DNA of 32,728 bases from Parcubacteria group bacterium GW2011_GWA2_45_30 (GCA_001001625.1 LCKU01000002.1:1-32728); one strand, 5' to 3'. Positions 1 through 29,978 are shown, counted from the stretch's first letter. The notes: generated by a model from the sequence alone, not told the origin. Translations and numbers: made by a program.

Positions 1-389
1 CCGGAGTAAAAAAGAACTCCGAGTGCGGCCACAAAAAATAAAGTGTCTGAAATACCCATAACAATTTAGAGATAACTTATAATCACCGCGCCGAGTATGG
101 CGTAGGCCAACAAACTTCCCACGCCGTCAAACAAAGCTGAAAACCAAGCCAGGGCCGCCGCATTCTCACCCAGATAGATCCTCGCGTATCCGGGCATCCG
201 ATGAACCCCGTGCGTATGCAAAACAACACCGTACAGCAGGTGCAGAAAAACCGCGATGGCGGTTAGAACAACGAGCAAGACCGTGCCAAGCCAAAAACCG
301 GAAGCGGCAAAAGCATACGGAATACCGAACATACCAACGCCTATGATCATGCCGGAGAGCATAAGAATCGCTTCTATATATCTCACCAT
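1..389 (-). pseudogene. Amino-acid permease paralog (tandem copy of the next gene) interrupted by an in-frame TAA at 66-68; runs off the window edge
   Basis: The 107-aa ORF 66..389 aligns almost residue for residue with the N-terminus of the adjacent permease (IEAxLxLSGMIIGVGMFxIPYxFAAxGFW ... LLAYxILG). After the TAA the same frame stays open to position 1 and still encodes TM-like sequence (IVMGISDTLFFVAALGVLFYS). Confidence 0.45.
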
Positions 390-1525
390 AGGGTCTTGCT
401 TAATTCATAGAAAACTCCGACGACAATCATAGCGCAAATTCCGAATTTCCATACATATGAAAAAGTAGAGAAAACACTTCCCGTATTTTGTTTTATTTTG
501 TGATACATGGCGATGGTAAGCGCCGAATCAATACCGACCGCAATTGCACCCACCGCCCCTATGATAACAATAAAATCATGCATGCCGGCAAGATACAATG
601 CGAATGGAAAAAATACCGCAATAATCCAAGCCAAAACCCGCGGGAATTTGAAATCAAGGTTAAGCAGTATCTGAAAACTTTTCCCAAGAACTATAAACGA
701 AGTAAACGCCGCCAGAAAACCGATTAAACTCCCAAAAAATATCAGATACCCCCCATCAAGAGCCCCTAAACTTGAAATTGTTTCTTCACTCACGCCGATT
801 CCGAATGTTCCAACCACCGCCAGCGCAAACAAAAAATAAAGCGCGGCTGGAATAAGGGTTCCGACAATAATCGCGCGCCGGACACTTGAACGTTCTTTGC
901 CAAGCACCATCACCAAATCAGGAATAACCGCGCCGCCGGACAAAGCAAAGAGCAACACGCCGTAGGGAATAAAAGCATTAAACGGATTAAGCCCGCCGAG
1001 GCGCGAGGCGTCAAAATGGAAAAACAGCAGGAATACAGAAAGAAGAATCGTAAAAACAATCAAAACTGCGGTGAGAATACCGTTAATCGCCGCTTCTTTG
1101 CGCAAAGGCAGAAATGTAATAAGCGCAGTGGCAAGTGTAATCACTGACGCCCAGAACAAACTACCGCCCCCCACGCCAAATTGCAGAAAAATCGTCTGCA
1201 TAAATTTTGAGCCAAGCAGGATATAGGCAAGCAAAACTCCGGTAATTCCAAATAGCGCGGAAAAGCGCGCAAGAAAAACAGCATAACGCCCAAGATAAAT
1301 TTGGGCATAACCGGGCAGACGATGAAATTCGGGAGTGGCCAACACAACCTCGCCATACAACAATTGAAAAAGCAAAATAACGCCGGTTAAAATCACAAGT
1401 TCCAAAACCCCGAACCAAAATCCCACCGCGGCAAAAGAATAAGGAATTGCAAACATCCCCACTCCGATTATCATGCCGGACAGTACAAGTACAGCTTCTA
1501 TAAATTTTGCATTGAAAAACTTCAT
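383..1525 (-). CDS. Amino-acid permease-type multi-pass membrane transporter
   Basis: Long hydrophobic ORF with many TM segments. The N-terminal GMIIGVGMFAIPYSFAAVGFW motif is typical of amino-acid (aromatic amino-acid type) permeases. Start placed at ATG 1525 (MKFFNAKF), since the longer ORF to 1573 overlaps the upstream gene. Its TGA (383-385) overlaps the ATG of the downstream paralog. Confidence 0.6.
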   Translation of the reverse strand: MKFFNAKFIEAVLVLSGMIIGVGMFAIPYSFAAVGFWFGVLELVILTGVILLFQLLYGEVVLATPEFHRLPGYAQIYLGRYAVFLARFSALFGITGVLLAYILLGSKFMQTIFLQFGVGGGSLFWASVITLATALITFLPLRKEAAINGILTAVLIVFTILLSVFLLFFHFDASRLGGLNPFNAFIPYGVLLFALSGGAVIPDLVMVLGKERSSVRRAIIVGTLIPAALYFLFALAVVGTFGIGVSEETISSLGALDGGYLIFFGSLIGFLAAFTSFIVLGKSFQILLNLDFKFPRVLAWIIAVFFPFALYLAGMHDFIVIIGAVGAIAVGIDSALTIAMYHKIKQNTGSVFSTFSYVWKFGICAMIVVGVFYELSKTLW

Positions 1526-1532
1526 ATATTTT

Positions 1533-2384
1533 TTATGCCATAATTTGCGCGGCGGCGATAGAGCCGAGTACAATCAGAAACGCGGCAAATTTTTTCCAAT
1601 GGAACGTCTCGCGCAAGAAAAAAATTGAAGCCAAATACACTAAAAATGGCATAAGGGAAAATAAAAGCACGGTATAAATTATGCCCGAGCGCTGGTAAGA
1701 GTAAAAATAAAACAACCAGGCAACGGTCGTAAGAAGGTTGGTTAAAATGAGCAGTAAAAAAACGCGCCAGGTAATTTTTTTCTCTTCTCTGAAAAATAAG
1801 GGGCCCAAAACGCAGGCGGCCACGCCATCCACCGCCAGACCCAAAACAATCGGATGCCAAACCATAAGAAGGGTTTTGTTTGCCGCCGCCTCAAGCGGAG
1901 CCGCCACGATCATCCACAAAAAATACGGCAGAGTGCGCCGCGCCATACGAAAATGGTTGCGCCCCCAATGCGACCACACAATTACCAAAGACGCTACCAG
2001 CGCTGGAATCAAAATAGAGAAGTTCTGCTCATCCGCAAACCAAATACTGGAAAATAATATAATCGGGATGTTACGAAACAAATCCAGGGTCTGAATTTCA
2101 TTCAAATGATCATGGTCCAGGGCCCGGTAAAAAAATAAATTTGTTCCCAGTGAAAGTACGATTGAAAACACAAGAAATAAAGGCAAGTTGCCGTAAAATA
2201 ACTCCTTGGATACCGGCGGACGCACGATTAAAAAAATCGCCAACGTGATAAGAAGTATAAGAGGAAAACTTACGCCGGTGTAGGTCTTATAATTCACGCG
2301 TTTAAGCGAGAGTATGGCTTTGTCCAGCGTAAAGGACGCGGCCTGCAGAACCGCTGCCAAAAATGGAAAAAGTAGCGCCATCAA
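1533..2384 (-). CDS. EamA/DMT-like drug-metabolite transporter family membrane protein
   Basis: 283-aa ORF with about ten hydrophobic segments. Size and two-halves layout are typical of EamA-domain transporters. Family call is from general sequence character only. Confidence 0.5.
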   Translation of the reverse strand: MMALLFPFLAAVLQAASFTLDKAILSLKRVNYKTYTGVSFPLILLITLAIFLIVRPPVSKELFYGNLPLFLVFSIVLSLGTNLFFYRALDHDHLNEIQTLDLFRNIPIILFSSIWFADEQNFSILIPALVASLVIVWSHWGRNHFRMARRTLPYFLWMIVAAPLEAAANKTLLMVWHPIVLGLAVDGVAACVLGPLFFREEKKITWRVFLLLILTNLLTTVAWLFYFYSYQRSGIIYTVLLFSLMPFLVYLASIFFLRETFHWKKFAAFLIVLGSIAAAQIMA

Positions 2385-2433
2385 CTATCATCATACCATT
2401 TTTATTATGCATATAACAGGAACCGCCCACACC

Positions 2434-2466
2434 ATAAATAAAAATCCGCACCGATGGATGCGGATT
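2434..2466 (-). terminator. Rho-independent terminator downstream of the 2469..3341 gene
   Basis: On the minus strand the stem AATCCGCA/TGCGGATT (2459-2466 pairs with 2443-2450) is followed by TTTTATTTAT. Confidence 0.55.
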
Positions 2467-2468
2467 TG

Positions 2469-3341
2469 TTAACGTTTTTCGAGACGGGAATTTATTTCCT
2501 GCTGCATTTTTTCCTTCCACTTGCCCGGGGTGTGTATAATTCGCTTGGCACCAAGCGCCTGCAATTCTTTGCGCGTTTTGGCTTGTTCCGAAATCGGTTT
2601 CCAGAACTCCGCAAGAATATTTTTTTGCTCCGCATCGTTAATACGCTGAGAAGACGGCAGACGAAATCGCTCGGCTTCAATCTCAATTTTACGCGGAAGA
2701 TCAAAAATAAATGCCGCGTTATCTTTTTTATCATTTTCCAATATGATGAAATTCGGAAAAATTATGCCTCGATACCCGGTAAATCCTTTAATCTTGTTTA
2801 AAAATCCGGAGATTGCCCTGGGCTGAGATTGCATGAATTCAAGCCGTTCCGGATCAGTAAGGTCCTTGCCGCCGCCCTCTCCCCGCACCGTTTTCTCGCG
2901 CGGCTCCCCCTCATCGTGATTCGGCAAAATATCAAGATTGGTCTTTTTCCAAAAACTTAGATTTACTCGCTCAATGATTTGAAGTATTTCTTTGGCAATA
3001 ACTTCTCGTGTAATATCAATACTCGAAGGCATCACGCCGTATTGCATGCCTCTTTCCGAAATAGTCCAGGTGAAACGAGCTTCTTTACCGTTCTTATTTG
3101 TATAAAATATGACTGCGTTAACACAATCCTCGGTAGCTCCATTTTCTTTCAAAAGCGGAATAAATGTCATTGAGCCAATCCCGGAAAGGCGCGAAGGGAA
3201 ATTCCCGCGCGGAACATCTTTAATATGCCCCTTCAGTACGCGCTCGAAAAGATCTCCAATCTCTTTTTCTTCAGCTTCTTTGGATGATTTTTTCCATGCG
3301 GACGGAAGGTCCGAAAAATTTTTAACTCCTTCTTTAACCAT
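2469..3341 (-). CDS. Hypothetical protein (290 aa), no family recognised
   Basis: Uninterrupted ORF with an ATG start, 6 nt downstream of the preceding gene's stop (operon-like). Charged, soluble-looking sequence. Confidence 0.6.
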   Translation of the reverse strand: MVKEGVKNFSDLPSAWKKSSKEAEEKEIGDLFERVLKGHIKDVPRGNFPSRLSGIGSMTFIPLLKENGATEDCVNAVIFYTNKNGKEARFTWTISERGMQYGVMPSSIDITREVIAKEILQIIERVNLSFWKKTNLDILPNHDEGEPREKTVRGEGGGKDLTDPERLEFMQSQPRAISGFLNKIKGFTGYRGIIFPNFIILENDKKDNAAFIFDLPRKIEIEAERFRLPSSQRINDAEQKNILAEFWKPISEQAKTRKELQALGAKRIIHTPGKWKEKMQQEINSRLEKR

Positions 3342-3347
3342 ATAAGA

Positions 3348-3593
3348 TTATCTCTTAAATATCATATCTCCTTCTTTGGCGGGTGAATCAAGTTTAACCG
3401 CGACCTCATCGCCTTTTTTGCCCGCCTCAACCGGCTTCTTATCCACCTGCATTGATCCTACTGCCTGCTCAAAATCAGACGTTTTGCCTTTCACGTTAAC
3501 CGTGTCGCCGACCTTAAGCGGCGCGTCAAGTTTTATCACCGCCACTCCGATTTTATCAAAATAATGGATTATTTTACCGAGTTTTTCTTCCAT
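3348..3593 (-). CDS. Small translation elongation factor-like protein (EF-Tu domain 2-like beta-barrel)
   Basis: The 81-aa ORF (GKIIHYFDKIGVAVIKLDAPLKVGDTVNVKGKTSDFEQAVGSMQVDKKPVEAGKKGDEVAVK) matches the pattern of the ~80-90 aa proteins annotated as elongation factor-like in archaea and small-genome bacteria (from memory). Confidence 0.6.
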   Translation of the reverse strand: MEEKLGKIIHYFDKIGVAVIKLDAPLKVGDTVNVKGKTSDFEQAVGSMQVDKKPVEAGKKGDEVAVKLDSPAKEGDMIFKR

Positions 3594-3600
3594 GGAATCG

Positions 3601-3682
3601 CGAACAGCGCTAACAGTAGCGAACAGCGCTAACAGTTTTTCTGTTCGTGCTGTTCGTGACTAATCTGTTCGTGCTGTTAGTG
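3601..3682. repeat. Composite direct plus inverted repeat cluster filling a whole intergenic spacer
   Basis: CGAACAGCGCTAACAGT occurs twice (3601-3617, 3620-3636). It is followed by two copies of the near-complementary CTGTTCGTGCTGTT(C/A)GTG (3641-3658, 3665-3682). The arrangement is A A (TTTTT) B B, giving nested hairpins. It lies exactly between the stop at 3684 and the start at 3593. Confidence 0.8.
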
Positions 3683-3683
3683 C

Positions 3684-4259
3684 TTACATCTCTACTATCT
3701 TATCTTTTTTTATTAACTCCAACAATTTTTCGACCAATTTTTTGGGATCTGAATCATATGCGATCCCGTTATGCACGCGGTGTGATTTTTCCACAATCTC
3801 CCGCATCTCATCCGCCATGCCGCCGGTGCCGGTTAAGACCCCAATGGGCTTTTGATCTTCAAAGGCAACTGTAAATTCATTTAAAGTCCCCATACGTCCG
3901 CAAGAAATAACTATGGCATCGGCCGCGCGGGTAAGCAACAAATTCCTGCCCGCGTAACCAAAGCCGGTATAAATAATGATGTCGTGATTATCCAGCGGCA
4001 ATTCGTATTTTTCCACATGCTCTTTTTCGGATCCGGCCGGCGAGACACCGACCACAAATCCACCCGCCTCTTTGGCTCCGATCGCCGCCCAATAAGGAGT
4101 TCCGGTGGTAGCGCCGGTCACCAAAACCGCGCCGTGTTTAACAATTTGCCGGCCGAGTTCTTTGGTTTTTTCCATAGCATCCGGCGCGCAATGTCCGGTT
4201 TCAGCCGCGCCGGATACGCAGATTTTTATTTTTAGATGGGGGTGAGAAATTGATTGCAT
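3684..4259 (-). CDS. TIGR00725/LOG-like (SLOG Rossmann-fold, lysine-decarboxylase-like family) protein
   Basis: KICVSGAAETG...GAVLVTGATTGTPYWAAIGAKEAGG..VGVSP...IIYTGFGYAGRNLLLTRAADAIVISCGRMGTLNEF fits the LOG/TIGR00725 pattern. Start moved to ATG 4259, because the ORF-track start at 4268 is a TTG. Confidence 0.6.
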   Translation of the reverse strand: MQSISHPHLKIKICVSGAAETGHCAPDAMEKTKELGRQIVKHGAVLVTGATTGTPYWAAIGAKEAGGFVVGVSPAGSEKEHVEKYELPLDNHDIIIYTGFGYAGRNLLLTRAADAIVISCGRMGTLNEFTVAFEDQKPIGVLTGTGGMADEMREIVEKSHRVHNGIAYDSDPKKLVEKLLELIKKDKIVEM

Positions 4260-4267
4260 AGTTATCA

Positions 4268-4307
4268 ACGAATAACGAATTTATTACGAATTTACGAATA
4301 AACGAAT
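4268..4307. repeat. ACGAAT short-period repeat cluster (intergenic copy)
   Basis: ACGAAT occurs five times at 4268, 4275, 4286, 4294 and 4302 (spacings 7, 11, 8, 8). The same motif and spacing recur at 12022-12045 and, reverse-complemented and in frame, inside recG (27493-27525). Confidence 0.75.
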
Positions 4308-4366
4308 TCCTTCATTGGGCTATTCTGATAGATTCAATATTCGTTAATGATCACATATATTATACC

Positions 4367-5713
4367 TCAAATCTCAAATTCGTCACCCAGCATCGGCGCG
4401 TCGGCCTGGATTCCCAGGCGGTCGCGGATTTCCTGCATAAAATGCAGGGCCTGGGATTGCTCTCCCTGCACCACGAATACGCGCTTTAAAGTGTCGCGGT
4501 TAGCCGCAACAAACGCATATAATTGCGGATTGTCGGCGTGCGCGGAGAACCCATTGATCTTGCGGATCTCGGCGGCAACCGAAACCTCTTCCTTGAAAAT
4601 TTTTATTTCTTTGGCGCCATCCAATAATCGCCTACCCAATGATCCTGCGGTCTGATAACCCACCACAAGTAAAATGCTGTTTTTGTCTTTTAAGTAGCGG
4701 CGCGCGTGGTGCAAAATTCTTCCGCCCTGCATCATGCCGGATCCGGCAATTATAACCTTGGGAGGAAGAACATCATTGATTGCTTTTGATTCTTCCACGC
4801 TTTCGGTAAATTGCAATTTACTGAATTTAAAAAGTTTCGGATGCTCTAAATATAATTTTTGAATCTCTTCTTTGTAATATGCGGGGTATGCTTCGTACAC
4901 CGAGGTTATACGGCTGGCCAAAGGAGAGTCCACAAAAACCGGCATTTCGGGAATACGCTTAAAATGAACCATATTGTTCAAAATATATAAAATGTCCTGC
5001 GTACGTTCAGTAGCAAACGCAGGGATCAAAAGGGTCCCCCGCCTACTGGCAATATCCTCCACCGCTCGTTCAAGTTTAAGCACACGCTCCTCCGGCATTT
5101 CATGCGCACGACCACCATAGGCTGATTCTACAATAAGATACTCAATGCCGCTTACCTTTTCCGACGGAGGCAGAAGAACCGATGGAATATTTCCCAAATC
5201 GCCGGAAAAAAGAAACTTTTTTTTCTCGGCGAATATCTCAATAAGGGCAGACCCCAAAATATGCCCGGCATCGTGAAACCGAACTTCAGTTTCTCCAAAA
5301 GAGATCTTTTCTCCGTATGATACGGTTCTCCAGCGGCCAAACGCGTCCTCAATATCTTTCGAAGAATAAAGTTCTTCTCCCCGGCGTTCGGACAAAGACA
5401 GAGCGTCCTCCAGCAGATGGCGCGCCATGTCTTTAGTGGGCGGAGTTGAATAAATAGCGCCCCCAAATCCGTATCGTACCAGCTTGGGTATTCTGCCTAT
5501 ATGGTCAACGTGCGCGTGCGTAACAAAAACCGCATCAATGGATTTAGGATCAAACTTAAACGGCCGCCCGTTTAAATCCGAACAAATATCACAGCCCTGA
5601 AACAGGCCGCAATCAATAAGAAATTTGTGGCTTTGGGTTTCAAGCAGATGGCACGCTCCGGTCACCTCTCCGGCTCCGCCGTGAAAAGAAATTTTCATGT
5701 CTATATCATACAC
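4367..5713 (-). CDS. MBL-fold beta-CASP family RNA-metabolising nuclease (CPSF/RNase J-like, COG1236 type)
   Basis: 448-aa ORF with the HxHxDH motif (THAHVDHIGRIP). Downstream region (YLIVESAYGG ... SAHAD) is beta-CASP-like, and length is typical of the family. Confidence 0.8.
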   Translation of the reverse strand: MYDIDMKISFHGGAGEVTGACHLLETQSHKFLIDCGLFQGCDICSDLNGRPFKFDPKSIDAVFVTHAHVDHIGRIPKLVRYGFGGAIYSTPPTKDMARHLLEDALSLSERRGEELYSSKDIEDAFGRWRTVSYGEKISFGETEVRFHDAGHILGSALIEIFAEKKKFLFSGDLGNIPSVLLPPSEKVSGIEYLIVESAYGGRAHEMPEERVLKLERAVEDIASRRGTLLIPAFATERTQDILYILNNMVHFKRIPEMPVFVDSPLASRITSVYEAYPAYYKEEIQKLYLEHPKLFKFSKLQFTESVEESKAINDVLPPKVIIAGSGMMQGGRILHHARRYLKDKNSILLVVGYQTAGSLGRRLLDGAKEIKIFKEEVSVAAEIRKINGFSAHADNPQLYAFVAANRDTLKRVFVVQGEQSQALHFMQEIRDRLGIQADAPMLGDEFEI

Positions 5714-5733
5714 TTTTTAATTCAAATAAAAAA

Positions 5734-5805
5734 TGCCCTCGGGCAGATTCGAACTGCCATTTCAGGCTTCGGAGGCCTGCGTCCTATCCATTGGACGACG
5801 AGGAC
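5734..5805 (-). tRNA. tRNA-Arg (anticodon CCG)
   Basis: Minus-strand sequence folds by hand into a cloverleaf: acceptor GTCCTCG/CGAGGGC, D-arm GTCC-AATGGATA-GGAC, anticodon arm CAGGC-CTCCGAA-GCCTG, T-arm GGCAG-TTCGAAT-CTGCC, discriminator A. 72 nt, with no encoded CCA. Confidence 0.85.
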
Positions 5806-5820
5806 ATATATTTTTCTTCA

Positions 5821-5852
5821 AGTGTAGCAAAATTTTCTCCAAACACAAAGGC
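5821..5852 (-). promoter_or_regulatory. Putative promoter of tRNA-Arg(CCG) with extended -10 TTTGC-TACACT
   Basis: The minus strand reads TTTGCTACACT about 10 nt upstream of the tRNA 5' end. It shares the TTTGCTAC(G/A)CT core with promoters at 20777-20805 and 24672-24700. The -35 is weak (TTTGTG/TTGTGT). Confidence 0.35.
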
Positions 5853-5989
5853 CTTGACTCATTGAAAAGCCAAGGCCCCCTGTTGCGCGGCTTTAACCGC
5901 GCTTATATCATATTCCACAAAGCCGCAGAAATCCCCTACTGAAAATTTTATTAAAACTTCGGAGATTCCTTTTGTGCCTTATGGAATCG

Positions 5990-6300
5990 GAAGGGGCGAT
6001 GATCCGGATCGGAGGACAAATGTGCGACCAATCCTCACATTTGTGATTCATCCTCCCACTTATGTATTCGTCACCATCTCATCAGAAAGAAAGACACTTG
6101 TGTAATTTTAGATCTTCTTCGTGAGAAAGCGTAGAAATAAGTGGGAGGACAAGTGAGTGTCTCTTTTTTGTCCTCCTATCCGGATCTCCATTTCCCGGAT
6201 TCGGGGCTCTTAAGTCCGGCATTTTCAGCCAAACACTTACCGAGGAGGGTCGGAAGTTTTAATCGGAGCCCCGAATCCGGGAAATGGAATATATTCCATA
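5990..6300. other. Non-coding region of nested long inverted repeats; candidate structured RNA(s) or MITE-like elements
   Basis: GATCCGGATCGGAGGACAAA (6001-6020) pairs with TTTGTCCTCCTATCCGGATC (6167-6186) at 19 of 20 positions. CCTCCCACTTA (6051-6061) pairs with TAAGTGGGAGG (6138-6148). A perfect 22-bp stem joins CCATTTCCCGGATTCGGGGCTC (6188-6209) and GAGCCCCGAATCCGGGAAATGG (6266-6287). There is a 16-nt palindrome, ATGGAATATATTCCAT, at 6284-6299. Only short, implausible ORFs are present. Confidence 0.6.
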
Positions 6301-12010: not shown

Positions 12011-12078
12011 CTTTACGAAATGCGAATATCCGCGAATTTACGAATTCGTACATTCGTACTGATTGGTATTTCGTAAAG
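12011..12078. repeat. Intergenic hairpin containing a CGAAT repeat cluster and a 12-nt palindrome
   Basis: CTTTACGAAAT (12011-12021) pairs perfectly with ATTTCGTAAAG (12068-12078). Inside are GCGAAT-N4-GCGAAT-N2-ACGAAT and the palindrome TACGAATTCGTA (12039-12050). It fills the spacer between the archease-like stop and the PHP gene start. Confidence 0.75.
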
Positions 12079-22605: not shown

Positions 22606-22622
22606 TCGCTATAGCGATTTTC

Positions 22623-22752
22623 ATCCATTTAGTTTTCAGACACGACTCACGCGCTCCTACGGCGCGTTCGCTAAGGGTTGGACGAAACTTTTCCGCGTCA
22701 TTGCGGAAAACCAAGCAGTTTCGTCCTCCCATTGTCTGAAAACTAAACGGAT
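22623..22752. other. 130-nt multi-stem structured intergenic element (candidate ncRNA or MITE-like repeat)
   Basis: The 20-bp closing stem ATCCATTTAGTTTTCAGACA/TGTCTGAAAACTAAACGGAT has one mismatch. Inside are the hairpin ACGCGC-TCCTACG-GCGCGT and a perfect 10-bp stem GGACGAAACT/AGTTTCGTCC enclosing TTTCCGC-GTCATT-GCGGAAA. Confidence 0.6.
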
Positions 22753-22789
22753 TCAACCGCGTGTATACTCACTTATAAATTTTCCTTTT

Positions 22790-24671: not shown

Positions 24672-24700
24672 AGCGTAGCAAACTATCATAAAAATGTCAA
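24672..24700 (-). promoter_or_regulatory. Promoter of the 107-aa gene: TTGACA-N17-TACGCT with TG-extended -10
   Basis: The minus strand reads TTGACA-TTTTTATGATAGTTTGC-TACGCT. The -35 hexamer overlaps the uvrB ATG on the other strand. Confidence 0.5.
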
Positions 24701-26778
24701 CCTTTCGTCTAATCTCAAAATTCAACCCCACCGGAGACCAACCAGTCGCAATCGAAAAACTTGCGGCGAATTTGGATGCCGGTATACGGCACCAAACGCT
24801 TCTCGGCGTTACCGGCTCGGGAAAAACATTCACCATGGCCAATGTGATTGAACGAGTGCAGAAACCGACTCTTGTAATTTCCCATAATAAAACTCTGGCC
24901 ATGCAGCTTTACCAGGAGTTCAAAGAATTTTTCCCGGAAAACGCGGTGCACTATTTTGTTTCCTATTACGACTACTACCAGCCCGAAGCATATATTCCCC
25001 AAACCGACACCTACATCGAAAAGGACACCAAAATCAATGAAATGATTGACGCCCTGCGCCACGCCGCCACTGCATCACTCCTTACTCGGCGCGACGTAAT
25101 CATTGTCGCCTCGGTTTCCTGCATTTACGGCCTGGGCAGTCCGGAAGAATATCAAAAAGCATCTATTGAATTAAAAATGGGCCAGAAAATTTCTCGCCGC
25201 GAATTGCTTCACAATCTTGTAATGCTCCGATACGCGCGCAACCCCATTGATCCGTGCCAAGGGCATTTCCGTACCAGAGAAAATGCTATAGAAATATATC
25301 TGCCGTCTGGAGAAAATAAAATCGCGGTGGAAATCGAAAAAGGCAGAATCACGAATTTACACGAATCAAAAACAAAAACCAACGAATCGCGAAAACTTAA
25401 TCAATTTAGAGTTTATCCGGCCAAGCACTTCGTAACCCCGCAAAACAGCTTAAATCTTGCTATATCCAATATACGGCAAGAACTAAAAGAACGCCTAGCA
25501 GAGTTAAAAAAACGCGGGAAAGTGCTGGAGGCCGCGCGCCTGCGCCAGCGCACCAATTTTGATCTGGAGATGCTTGAAAAAATCGGATACATGAACGGCA
25601 TTGAAAATTATTCCCGGCAACTGGATTTCCGCAAGTCCGGAACCCCTCCACATACGCTTATTGACTACTTCAATTACGCCTTTCAGCACAGACCGTCCGA
25701 AAACTCTAAACACCGGGTGTTTTTTCGTTCAACACCCGGTGTTGACGGACAGTTTTCGGACGGTCTGTACGTATCAAAATGGCTATGCATAATTGACGAA
25801 TCGCATGTAAGCATTCCCCAAATCCGCGGGATGTATGCCGGAGACCACTCGCGCAAAGAAACTCTGATCGAATACGGGTTCCGTCTGCCCTCGGCGCTTG
25901 ATAACCGACCACTCATGTTTAAAGAATTTAACCAAAAAGTTGAACAAATTATATACGCTTCCGCAACTCCAACTGAATATGAGTTGCAGATGAGTAAACA
26001 GTCATACAGGGATCCGATCCCTGTAACACAGGGATCGGATCCATGTATTGTGGAGCAATTAATAAGGCCCACAGGAATTTTAGACCCCAGGATCGAAGTC
26101 CGACCTACAAAAAATCAGATCCACGCTGTTATAGCCGAGATTAAAAAACGGATTGCCAAAAACGAACGCTCGCTTGTTATGGCGCTAACCAAACGCCTAG
26201 CGGAAGACATTGCAGAATACCTTGAAGAGGCGGGAATAAAAGCCAAATATCTTCATTCGGAAGTAAAAACCCTGGAGAGGCCAGAAACACTAAAAAAACT
26301 CCGCACCGGAGAACATGACGTAATTGTCGGAATCAATCTGCTGCGGGAAGGGCTTGATTTACCCGAAGTTTCTTTTATCGCCATATTGGATGCCGACAAA
26401 GAAGGATTTTTGCGAAACATTACCACGCTTTTACAAATCATAGGCCGCGCCGCGCGGCACATAGACGGGAAAGTAACTCTTTATGCTGATACCATGACCG
26501 GCTCCATGCGCGCGGCAATCAATGAAACAAACCGTCGCCGCAAAATTCAGGAAGATTATAACCGAGCACACGGCATTACACCCGCGCAGATAAAAAAAGA
26601 AATAAGAAAATCGCTTCTGGAAGAAACTGCAGCAAAAGATGAATTTCCTATGCCCGATGGCCCCACAGAAAAAATTGTAAAATCCCTGGAGCGCGAAATG
26701 AAAAAGGCGTCGCGCGAAATGAATTTTGAACTGGCCGCCAAAATACGGGATCGGATAATCAGGCAAACTGATCCATAG
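24694..26778 (+). CDS. uvrB: Excinuclease ABC subunit B (UvrB) with two in-frame palindromic insertions
   Basis: Walker A GVTGSGKTFTMA, the DESHVSIPQIRGMY motif, YGFRLPSALDNRPL, helicase C-terminal motifs and a C-terminal UVR domain (EMKKASREMNFELAAKIRDRI). Confidence 0.9.
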   Translation: MSTFRLISKFNPTGDQPVAIEKLAANLDAGIRHQTLLGVTGSGKTFTMANVIERVQKPTLVISHNKTLAMQLYQEFKEFFPENAVHYFVSYYDYYQPEAYIPQTDTYIEKDTKINEMIDALRHAATASLLTRRDVIIVASVSCIYGLGSPEEYQKASIELKMGQKISRRELLHNLVMLRYARNPIDPCQGHFRTRENAIEIYLPSGENKIAVEIEKGRITNLHESKTKTNESRKLNQFRVYPAKHFVTPQNSLNLAISNIRQELKERLAELKKRGKVLEAARLRQRTNFDLEMLEKIGYMNGIENYSRQLDFRKSGTPPHTLIDYFNYAFQHRPSENSKHRVFFRSTPGVDGQFSDGLYVSKWLCIIDESHVSIPQIRGMYAGDHSRKETLIEYGFRLPSALDNRPLMFKEFNQKVEQIIYASATPTEYELQMSKQSYRDPIPVTQGSDPCIVEQLIRPTGILDPRIEVRPTKNQIHAVIAEIKKRIAKNERSLVMALTKRLAEDIAEYLEEAGIKAKYLHSEVKTLERPETLKKLRTGEHDVIVGINLLREGLDLPEVSFIAILDADKEGFLRNITTLLQIIGRAARHIDGKVTLYADTMTGSMRAAINETNRRRKIQEDYNRAHGITPAQIKKEIRKSLLEETAAKDEFPMPDGPTEKIVKSLEREMKKASREMNFELAAKIRDRIIRQTDP
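25688..25768. repeat. 81-nt double-stem palindromic element inserted in frame in uvrB
   Basis: Perfect 18-bp outer inverted repeat (25688-25705 with 25751-25768) and perfect 13-bp inner inverted repeat (25709-21 with 25731-43). Confidence 0.85.
26010..26042. repeat. 33-nt hairpin (perfect 15-bp stem) inserted in frame in uvrB
   Basis: GGATCCGATCCCTGT (26010-26024), loop AAC, then ACAGGGATCGGATCC (26028-26042). Confidence 0.8.
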
Positions 26779-29788: not shown

Positions 29789-29898
29789 CCCCGTACCAAT
29801 TCTTGGTATAAATATGGATTTAAGAAGTCGTAAGCCGAAGGCGATGCCGCGGGATAGACTTCCTACTACGATAGAGTTAGTTCGGAATTGGTACGGGG
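29789..29898. other. 110-nt element closed by a perfect 14-bp stem; candidate ncRNA or repeat
   Basis: CCCCGTACCAATTC (29789-29802) pairs with GAATTGGTACGGGG (29885-29898). Inner pairs include GAAGTC/GACTTC and GCC-GAA-GGC. The ORF-track ORF 29715..30002 runs through it but looks spurious. Confidence 0.5.
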
Positions 29899-29939: not shown

Positions 29940-29978
29940 AGTAAATTTTTCAATTTGAAATTGATTGAAAAATTTACT
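29940..29978. repeat. AT-rich perfect 15-bp hairpin
   Basis: AGTAAATTTTTCAAT pairs with ATTGAAAAATTTACT across a 9-nt loop. It is preceded by a 9-bp hairpin, GAATGATTT/AAATCATTC (29915-29938). Confidence 0.75.

Follow-up and report, generated by a model that had tools for sequence, protein, structure and literature searches.

Introduction

Small stand-alone RNA genes whose hairpins display C-rich loops have been described as 6C small RNA (sRNA) in Actinobacteria and as RsaE/RoxS in Firmicutes, and the C-rich loops of 6C sRNA need neither Hfq nor ProQ to pair with G-rich stretches of mRNA (PMC6486639). Here we report on a block of long inverted repeats at positions 5990-6300 of a 32,728-nt stretch of DNA from Parcubacteria group bacterium GW2011_GWA2_45_30 (GCA_001001625.1, LCKU01000002.1:1-32728; this whole stretch is hereafter called the window), which resembles these RNA genes in build. 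It also resembles miniature inverted-repeat transposable elements (MITEs) and Rickettsia-type palindromic elements, which are likewise non-coding units of 100-190 nt with long near-perfect inverted repeats. With RNase P RNA, signal recognition particle (SRP) RNA, transfer-messenger RNA (tmRNA) and 6S RNA it shares a strong promoter, a link to tRNA genes and a core with lineage-specific peripheral hairpins. A preliminary description of the block had left the choice between a structured RNA and tandem MITEs, and had named an Rfam search, covariation in homologous loci and the presence of further copies as points to be checked. Its structured RNA was supported by a promoter, covariation, conserved wobble pairs and the absence of an Rfam match, whereas its tandem MITEs were not supported for the block as a whole. 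The block is very probably a minus-strand gene for a conserved structured RNA, and probably represents a family of non-coding RNA genes that Rfam 15 lacks and that is shared by Candidatus Sungbacteria and close Parcubacteria. As a kind, small structured bacterial RNAs with their own promoter are familiar; the family, the clade and the function are not.

Results

Long inverted repeats of the block

A repeat search of the window recovered perfectly complementary 23-nt arms at 6187-6209 and 6266-6288, 56 nt apart, which is one base pair more than the 22-bp stem at 6188-6287 that had been described. It also recovered 20-nt arms with one mismatch at 6001-6020 and 6167-6186, the first letters of which are GATCCGGATC, in agreement with the 20-bp closing stem reported for 6001-6186. 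Inside this second hairpin, the 11-bp pair noted earlier at 6051-61 and 6138-48 lies within inner arms at 6051-6070 and 6130-6149 (20 nt, 85% complementary, with a perfect 13-bp core), and local hairpins are present at 6016-6024/6036-6044 and 6144-6152/6168-6176. A perfect 16-nt palindrome without strand, ATGGAATATATTCCAT, was read at 6284-6299, where it covers the predicted transcription start and the first bases of the outer helix. Nearly all structural claims of the preliminary description held, since the arms, nested pairs, hairpins and palindrome were recovered by the repeat search or by reading. Neither long arm appeared in 100 shuffles of the window with up to three mismatches allowed. 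The 311-nt block folded at -142 kcal/mol on the minus strand (z = -11.4) and at -132 kcal/mol on the plus strand (z = -9.1), and on neither strand did a shuffled sequence fold as well. The two adjacent hairpins of the earlier description are thus real, but they are two domains of one transcription unit and not independent elements. On the minus strand the hairpin at 6187-6288 comes first and is called domain 1; that at 6001-6186 is called domain 2.

Homologous loci

Homologues were found by synteny, by reading the DNA downstream of genes for YkuK-type proteins 72-79% identical to that of the window, and by a metagenome scan with the first three motifs shared by the family (UUCGGGG…CCCUCCUYGG…GCCYCGAA). 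The scan gave 25 loci, six of which were true homologues with AT-rich context, promoter and hairpin; the others were chance matches in GC-rich coding DNA, about as numerous as expected. In total, 13 distinct homologous loci were obtained from Ca. Sungbacteria/Parcubacteria genomes and metagenomes, one of them in the complete 923-kb genome CP066690.1. The close YkuK-type homologues are labelled Candidatus Sungbacteria, Sungiibacteriota or Parcubacteria by their sources, and the beta-CASP protein gene downstream of the block is also found on metagenome contigs 99.9-100% identical to the window. The organism accordingly belongs to the candidate phyla radiation. Each locus carries one copy of the RNA. 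On the gene strand the three motifs are followed by GACACUCA…GGAGUG…UCCUCCGAYCCGGG, and in the relatives both domains keep the same order at the same syntenic position.

Domain 1 is a covarying three-way junction with an invariant C-rich loop

Domain 1 (6187-6288, minus strand) was defined by the repeat search, folds, covariation and a leave-one-out model. Every homologue folded alone into a helix P1 of 20-25 bp, a junction, a helix P2 with the loop (N)CCCUCCU, and a variable hairpin P3. In the window, P1 joins 6266-6288 with 6187-6209, P2 spans 6235-6257 and P3 spans 6214-6234. The CCCUCCU sequence, located at 6243-6249, is invariant in 13 of 13 sequences and forms the P2 loop in each individual fold.

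The covariation that the preliminary description had proposed to look for was strong in both domains. RNAalifold applied to a MAFFT alignment of the 13 domain 1 sequences predicted P1 with 14 compensatory pairs. When P2 and P3 had been added by hand, standard pairs occupied 93.0% of 417 cells in the full structure, and both sides were changed in 17 of 33 pairs. Pairing fell to 28-61% when the 3' partners were slid by one to three columns. The covariation score was 0.415 as against 0.204 in shuffles and was reached by none of 500 shuffles, a control that does not give a true probability because the about 13 distinct sequences all belong to one related clade. The outer half of P1 is unlike between lineages yet paired (UCCAUUUCCCGGA in the window, CGUUUUUUAA in locus L009, GUUUCUCCGA in L028), and its inner part, UUCGGGGCUCU/GGGGCCCCGAA, is conserved in sequence across the family as an 11-bp helix (UUCGGGG.../...CCYCGAA). 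Two P1 pairs are U·G in 11 and 10 of the 13 sequences. Since U·G would become C·A on the opposite strand, these wobbles indicate that the RNA strand is the gene strand, that is, the minus strand of the window; the preliminary description had given no strand.

A covariance model of domain 1 built from 11 other loci, with the window left out, matched the window at 6182-6293 on the minus strand with 72.9 bits (E about 1e-15) and on the plus strand with 46.8 bits; it gave no other convincing match in the 32.7-kb window. With the window included, the scores were 85.8 bits on the minus strand versus 48.5 on the plus strand. This second model found one site per true locus and nothing in the GC-rich chance loci or in contigs L003, L008 and L046.

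An intramolecular partner for the C-rich loop was considered and rejected. G-rich leader elements are present in L009, L013, L028 and L044 and not in the window, L012, L017, L019, L037 or L045. In the window, 5950-5970 is complementary in 17 of 21 positions to 6243-6263 (domain 1 junction, P2 5' strand and C-rich loop), and this complement has no counterpart in the relatives.

Domain 2 appears rearranged in the window

Domain 2 (6001-6186, minus strand), defined by the repeat search, folds, alignment and covariation, is a rod-like hairpin. Individual folds gave such a second hairpin in ten loci. In its canonical form the rod is uninterrupted, with the conserved GAGACACUCAC, a 12-16-nt loop, GGAGUG at the apex, and the conserved UUGUCCUCCGAYCCGG. 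In an alignment of ten sequences, to which a four-helix structure taken from L030 was applied, 86.1% of the cells were paired, with 14 compensatory pairs and frequent G·U, and none of 500 shuffles reached the covariation score.

Between the window and L030, exact blocks are collinear: GGAGGACAAA, then GAGACACUCACU (6163-6152 in the window), AAUCACAAAU (6048-6039) and UUGUCCUCCGAUCCGG (6019-6004), the last three being the conserved blocks of the domain. The closing helices (6178-6186/6001-6009 and 6167-6176/6011-6020) are intact, and the apex is split and the inner helices are altered. The split comes from about 103 nt inserted into the apical loop (6049-6151, minus strand), between the second and third of the four exact blocks, where all nine other aligned sequences have a 102-column gap. 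The inserted segment forms a hairpin of its own (6051-6070/6130-6149). At its start stands a second copy of the domain 2 3' arm (UUGUCCUCC), and at its end GGGAGGA, which resembles the 5' arm. This inner part, which the relatives lack, may be an inserted or duplicated palindromic segment. Because the insertion duplicates the arms, two folds are possible, one long rod or two successive hairpins; this is the source of the competing folds that had correctly been pointed out for this hairpin. A leave-one-out model of domain 2 built from the other nine sequences found no more than fragments of the domain in the window, which is explained by the insertion, and for this reason the domain 2 of the window is, as judged by alignment, a rearranged and non-canonical derivative.

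Domain 1 occurs without domain 2 at three loci. L017 has domain 1 alone, followed by a U-run; L045 has a domain 1 with an insertion of about 190 nt in P3 that holds a 24-bp perfect hairpin, followed by a terminator; and in L037 the domain 2 motif was not found. Since these loci lack domain 2, domain 1, with about 70-100 nt, is by this comparison the universal core of the RNA, and peripheral hairpin insertions recur around it. The insertions differ by lineage and affect P3, the interdomain segment or the domain 2 loop, the domain 1 core remaining constant. Additional hairpins between or within the domains were found in L009, L012, L015, L019 and L047. The insertion or duplication of hairpins seems to have changed these genomes repeatedly. 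In L012, a 13-bp perfect stem lies between the domains at 3672-3705, and the 24-bp perfect stem in P3 of L045 lies at 3846-4020. BLAST against all DNA compared gave self-matches only for the domain 2 insertion, the L045 insertion and the tail of the window RNA described below.

Promoter, tail and gene neighborhood

A promoter scan found a sigma-70-type promoter, TTGATT-17-TATAAT with TG before the -10 box, at 6328-6300 on the minus strand (10 of 12 matches). The predicted start is at about 6293, about 5 nt ahead of the first arm. In 12 of the 13 distinct homologous loci the corresponding place is taken by TTGACT-17-TGTATAAT, i.e. TTGACT-17-(T)GTATAAT. The TACGCT promoter core that had been proposed for the block was not confirmed: the hexamer is present on the minus strand, at 6128-6133 and thus one position away from the coordinates given, but it lies inside the lineage-specific insertion; the promoter-like site upstream of the block that the scan found is the one at 6328-6300. 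A terminator scan placed the intrinsic terminator of the upstream gene at 6346-6326 on the minus strand (a 9-bp stem, then ATTTTTTTAT), where it overlaps the -35 box of the RNA promoter. The relatives have an equivalent hairpin and T-run ahead of the promoter.

The genes flanking the block are all on the minus strand. In the order of transcription they are those for a WYL-domain protein (7932-7054) and a YkuK-type RNase H-like protein (PF04308; 6866-6375), then, after the block, tRNA-Arg(CCG) as the next gene (5806-5733, by ARAGORN and Rfam) and a beta-CASP metallo-beta-lactamase-fold protein (PF10996/PF00753/PF07521; 5698-4367).

The 194-nt tail between domain 2 and the tRNA is structured (z = -5.4). 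It contains a third hairpin at 5913-5990 on the minus strand, to which the segment 5950-5970 belongs, found by the repeat search and by folding in this lineage only; BLAST gave no counterpart of it in the relatives. Comparison of the hairpins revealed an 11-nt exact inverted match between it and domain 1. The two further hairpins of the preliminary description are also present on the minus strand: a short GC hairpin, GCGCGGUUAAAGCCGCGC, read from the sequence at 5887-5904 and folded, and a terminator-like hairpin at 5841-5877 followed by UUUGUGUUU, with arms at 5850-5859/5868-5877 from the repeat search, supported by folding and reading. The stem of the latter has 10 bp with one G·U and pairs on the minus strand only. 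It was not called by the terminator scan, and as a terminator it rests on reading; it is a candidate for the 3' end of the RNA or for a leaky stop ahead of the tRNA. The sole open reading frame (ORF) of the tail (5908-6051, 47 aa) was dismissed as a counterpart of the small hydrophobic ORFs of L009, L028 and L044, to which it is unrelated. These small hydrophobic proteins of 55-77 aa are encoded just downstream of the RNA (L009:3905-4138; L028, about 55 aa, minus strand of the locus; L044:3474-3662); their first about 36 residues are 46-53% identical between loci, and the window has no counterpart.

Searches for known RNAs, mobile elements and coding sequence

With gathering thresholds, Rfam 15 detected two tRNAs only in the whole window. 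At E-values up to 10, the block gave generic long-hairpin (miRNA-type) noise far below threshold, and five homologous loci searched at E-values up to 5 gave only tRNAs and generic hairpin noise. ARAGORN found no tmRNA in the window. These searches, whose models include 6C, Y RNA, riboswitches and ribozymes and which assigned no known family to the window, the block or the five loci, agree with the earlier failure to match the region by eye to RNase P RNA, tmRNA, SRP RNA or 6S RNA. In the literature, we found no relevant description of an RNA from Sungbacteria or the candidate phyla radiation, or of a YkuK-linked RNA.

The multicopy behavior expected of MITEs was not seen. No second copy of the arms was found in the window with up to three mismatches, the 185,579 species-representative genomes gave two chance single-arm matches only, and viral contigs contained neither the arms nor the family motif; the source genome lies outside these collections and was covered by the 32.7 kb of the window only. 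No target-site duplication was recognizable by reading at 6001, 6186 and 6288 or around 6049-6151. Pfam detected no transposase, integrase or reverse transcriptase among 27 of the larger ORFs of the window, including every flanking gene. A retron msr-msd was rejected, there being no reverse transcriptase among these ORFs. A riboswitch or cis-regulatory leader was likewise rejected, as there is no conserved class of downstream gene and terminators follow the RNA in L017 and L045. So was a coding region, since reading revealed no conserved ORF and the leader ORFs of the relatives are not conserved.

A contig without the block

Over window 1-5806, contig L003 matches with 99.98% identity; it then diverges fully, exactly at the 5' end of the tRNA. 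As judged from this comparison, window position 5806 is a sharp recombination or exchange boundary at the tRNA gene. The YkuK-type protein of L003 is 59% identical to that of the window. Beyond the boundary (L003:5526), L003 has other gene content, including HicAB, ParE and SpoU.

Other hairpins in the window

The uvrB gene (24694-26778, plus strand) contains two in-frame palindromic hairpins, at 25675-25780 and 25996-26056. The first has an 18-bp perfect stem (25688-25705/25751-25768, spanning 81 nt) and the second has a 21-nt palindrome at 26004-26048. Their positions coincide with those where the protein has about 35 and 15 residues more than solved UvrB structures (query positions 328-362 and about 435-449), and they are reminiscent of Rickettsia palindromic elements. 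A second intergenic structure of like build lies at 22606-22789 on the minus strand, flanked by a FemAB-family gene and a 159-aa ORF. It has a 20-bp closing stem (22623-22642/22733-22752) and two inner hairpins, and folds at -78 kcal/mol (z = -7.8). It has no Rfam match and no sequence similarity to the RNA at 5990-6300, and is possibly a further RNA absent from the catalogues. A 68-nt imperfect palindrome at 12011-12078, with directly adjoining 34-nt arms that are 76% complementary, takes up the whole gap separating a PHP-domain gene from an archease gene. Two more hairpins, with 14-bp perfect arms 82 nt apart (29789-29898) and 15-bp perfect arms 9 nt apart (29940-29978), lie in non-coding DNA upstream of a YafQ-type toxin operon. 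A single family of palindromic elements in the window was rejected, since an all-against-all comparison of the long hairpins showed no shared sequence.

Discussion

Proposed mode of action

A conserved strong sigma-70 promoter at 6328-6300 lies directly past the terminator of the YkuK-type gene, and the sequence behind it, taken as RNA, folds into domain 1 (6288-6187), a three-way junction closed by a 23-bp helix, and then into domain 2 (6186-6001), a rod. From these data we propose that transcription would stop at the weak terminator (5877-5841) or that RNase P would form the 3' end by cutting where the downstream tRNA begins; in relatives a tRNA follows directly. The RNA would be abundant, stable and trans-acting, with the domain 1 junction and its C-rich loop as the likely functional site. 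The CCCUCCU loop may pair with G-rich (GGAGG-type) RNA segments or may serve as a platform for protein binding.

The pairing mechanism, which is suggested by analogy with other C-rich loops, is a tentative proposal that we hold to be possible but not probable. Mycobacteria have many leaderless mRNAs, and the hosts of 6C have this feature in common with the Sungbacteria clade, as judged for the latter from the gene starts here. Unlike 6C and RsaE, the Sungbacteria RNA comes from a different phylum and has no covariance-model match. It presents one invariant C-rich loop in a three-way junction closed by a helix of 20-25 bp with a sequence-conserved inner part, and it may carry an optional second rod domain.

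Several observations weigh against a functional RNA with such a role. In L003, the YkuK-type gene is followed by 42 nt with a terminator and then by tRNA-Arg, and no copy of the RNA was found in 11 kb of this contig; the block is thus not obligatory at this site. Near-perfect helices of 20-25 bp are unusual for functional RNAs. The leave-one-out model of domain 2 detected the window fragments with 8.2 and 5.9 bits only, and the domain 2 of the window may be decaying instead of functional. The covariation comes from about 13 sequences of a single clade, as noted above. Finally, a Shine-Dalgarno (SD) sequence was present at only 4 of 48 called gene starts in the window and loci L001, L003, L009, L013 and L017, and AGGAGGG-type sites are not enriched in the window. 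This rarity of SDs and lack of enrichment weaken SD sequestration or a simple anti-SD role.

Many gene starts have a -10-like box (TATGATATA, TATAAT or TATACT) 6-10 nt before the ATG, which suggests that the mRNAs are mostly leaderless. By eye, a few strong SDs precede small ORFs in the tRNA clusters downstream of the RNA in L013, L015 and L030. It is conceivable, and in our judgment rather unlikely, that domain 1 is the core of a regulatory RNA or ribonucleoprotein (RNP) specific to the candidate phyla radiation and linked to its unusual way of translation, whose loop captures the few SD-bearing mRNAs or acts on the ribosome. If this were true, domain 1 would select mRNAs for translation globally, in a manner for which no counterpart has been described.

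Alternative explanations

The RNA may instead be a protein-binding scaffold or a subunit of a housekeeping-type RNP, in which the inner P1, the wobbles, the junction and the loop would form a recognition surface and the variable hairpins would be tolerated expansion segments. We regard this as possible, though short of probable, and an RNP role and a base-pairing role as about equally likely. The invariant 11-bp helix with its conserved tandem wobbles goes beyond the needs of pairing, the insertions are confined to peripheral loops, and SD targets for pairing are rare, all of which favor a scaffold. Its near-consensus strong promoter and its tRNA-gene neighbors, as is often the case for stable-RNA genes, point in the same direction, as does its retention in small genomes (923 kb for the complete one), where retained RNAs are likely to matter. 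On the other side, the block contains no motif of any known RNP RNA, and the YkuK-type and WYL/exonuclease-like neighbors are tied to it by general synteny only, which is broken in L015, L045 and L047.

The genes downstream of the RNA bear on a second explanation, namely that the block is a cis-acting leader of the tRNA transcription unit that guides processing, stability or read-through and is otherwise without function. About 30 nt past domain 2, with no intervening terminator, L013 and L030 have a tRNA gene, the tRNA clusters of L009 and L013 have tRNA-Arg(CCG) as their last gene, and in the window reading revealed no convincing separate promoter for the tRNA-Arg at 5840-5806. The downstream genes vary among loci and include those for tRNAs, a small membrane protein, a histidine kinase, a response regulator and an ABC transporter. 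Against a leader, the next gene encodes a protein in L012, L015, L028 and L047; in L017 and L045, the RNA ends in a U-run or terminator, and the protein-coding genes after it are leaderless and have -10 boxes of their own; and L003 has the same tRNA-Arg without the block. A tRNA leader is therefore unlikely.

It is very unlikely that the block is a highly divergent version of a universal RNA (6S, SRP/4.5S, RNase P, tmRNA or Y RNA) that the Rfam models missed. RNAs of the candidate phyla radiation are often atypical, and the strong promoter, the tRNA neighbors and the conserved core with variable peripheral hairpins are what such an RNA would show. Against this, no family was matched at the permissive thresholds given above, ARAGORN found no tmRNA, and inspection revealed none of the defining motifs, i.e. 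the GNRA loop and AGCA of SRP RNA, P4 of RNase P RNA, the central bubble of 6S RNA, or a tRNA-like T-arm. Moreover, it is domain 1 alone, of about 70-100 nt, that is universal in the family.

The least probable explanation, two adjacent MITE-like palindromic mobile elements without RNA function, accounts for the long near-perfect terminal inverted repeats, the typical sizes of 102 and 186 nt, the inner about 103 nt of the second hairpin as an insertion relative to other family members, the other long hairpins of the window including the two in frame inside uvrB, and the absence of the block from the equivalent site of L003, but it was rejected for the block as a whole because no second copy and no transposase were found in the searches described above, the L003 flank is non-homologous and hence not a clean empty site, and the relatives share both domains, their order, the promoter ahead of them and the syntenic site, with compensatory changes in the arms and conserved wobbles. 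Unlike MITEs, the Sungbacteria RNA is a single-copy gene at a fixed position behind a conserved promoter, with no target-site duplication seen at the block; what it has in common with palindromic elements is that, like the uvrB gene of the same window, it carries an inserted hairpin.

Implications for Sungbacteria genomes

The non-coding RNAs of bacteria of the candidate phyla radiation, organisms not yet grown alone, are almost unexplored. A structured RNA gene, the reading that we prefer for the block, shows that long perfect inverted repeats in such genomes are not to be dismissed as MITEs. The comparison provides a definable domain 1 core with an invariant C-rich loop, a model with which to search for it, and a natural series of hairpin expansions around it. 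In practical terms, it allows the annotation of an otherwise empty intergenic region of 0.5 kb in Sungbacteria genomes. A strongly promoted, covarying RNA that is kept in genomes of about 0.9 Mb is likely to have an important role in these bacteria.

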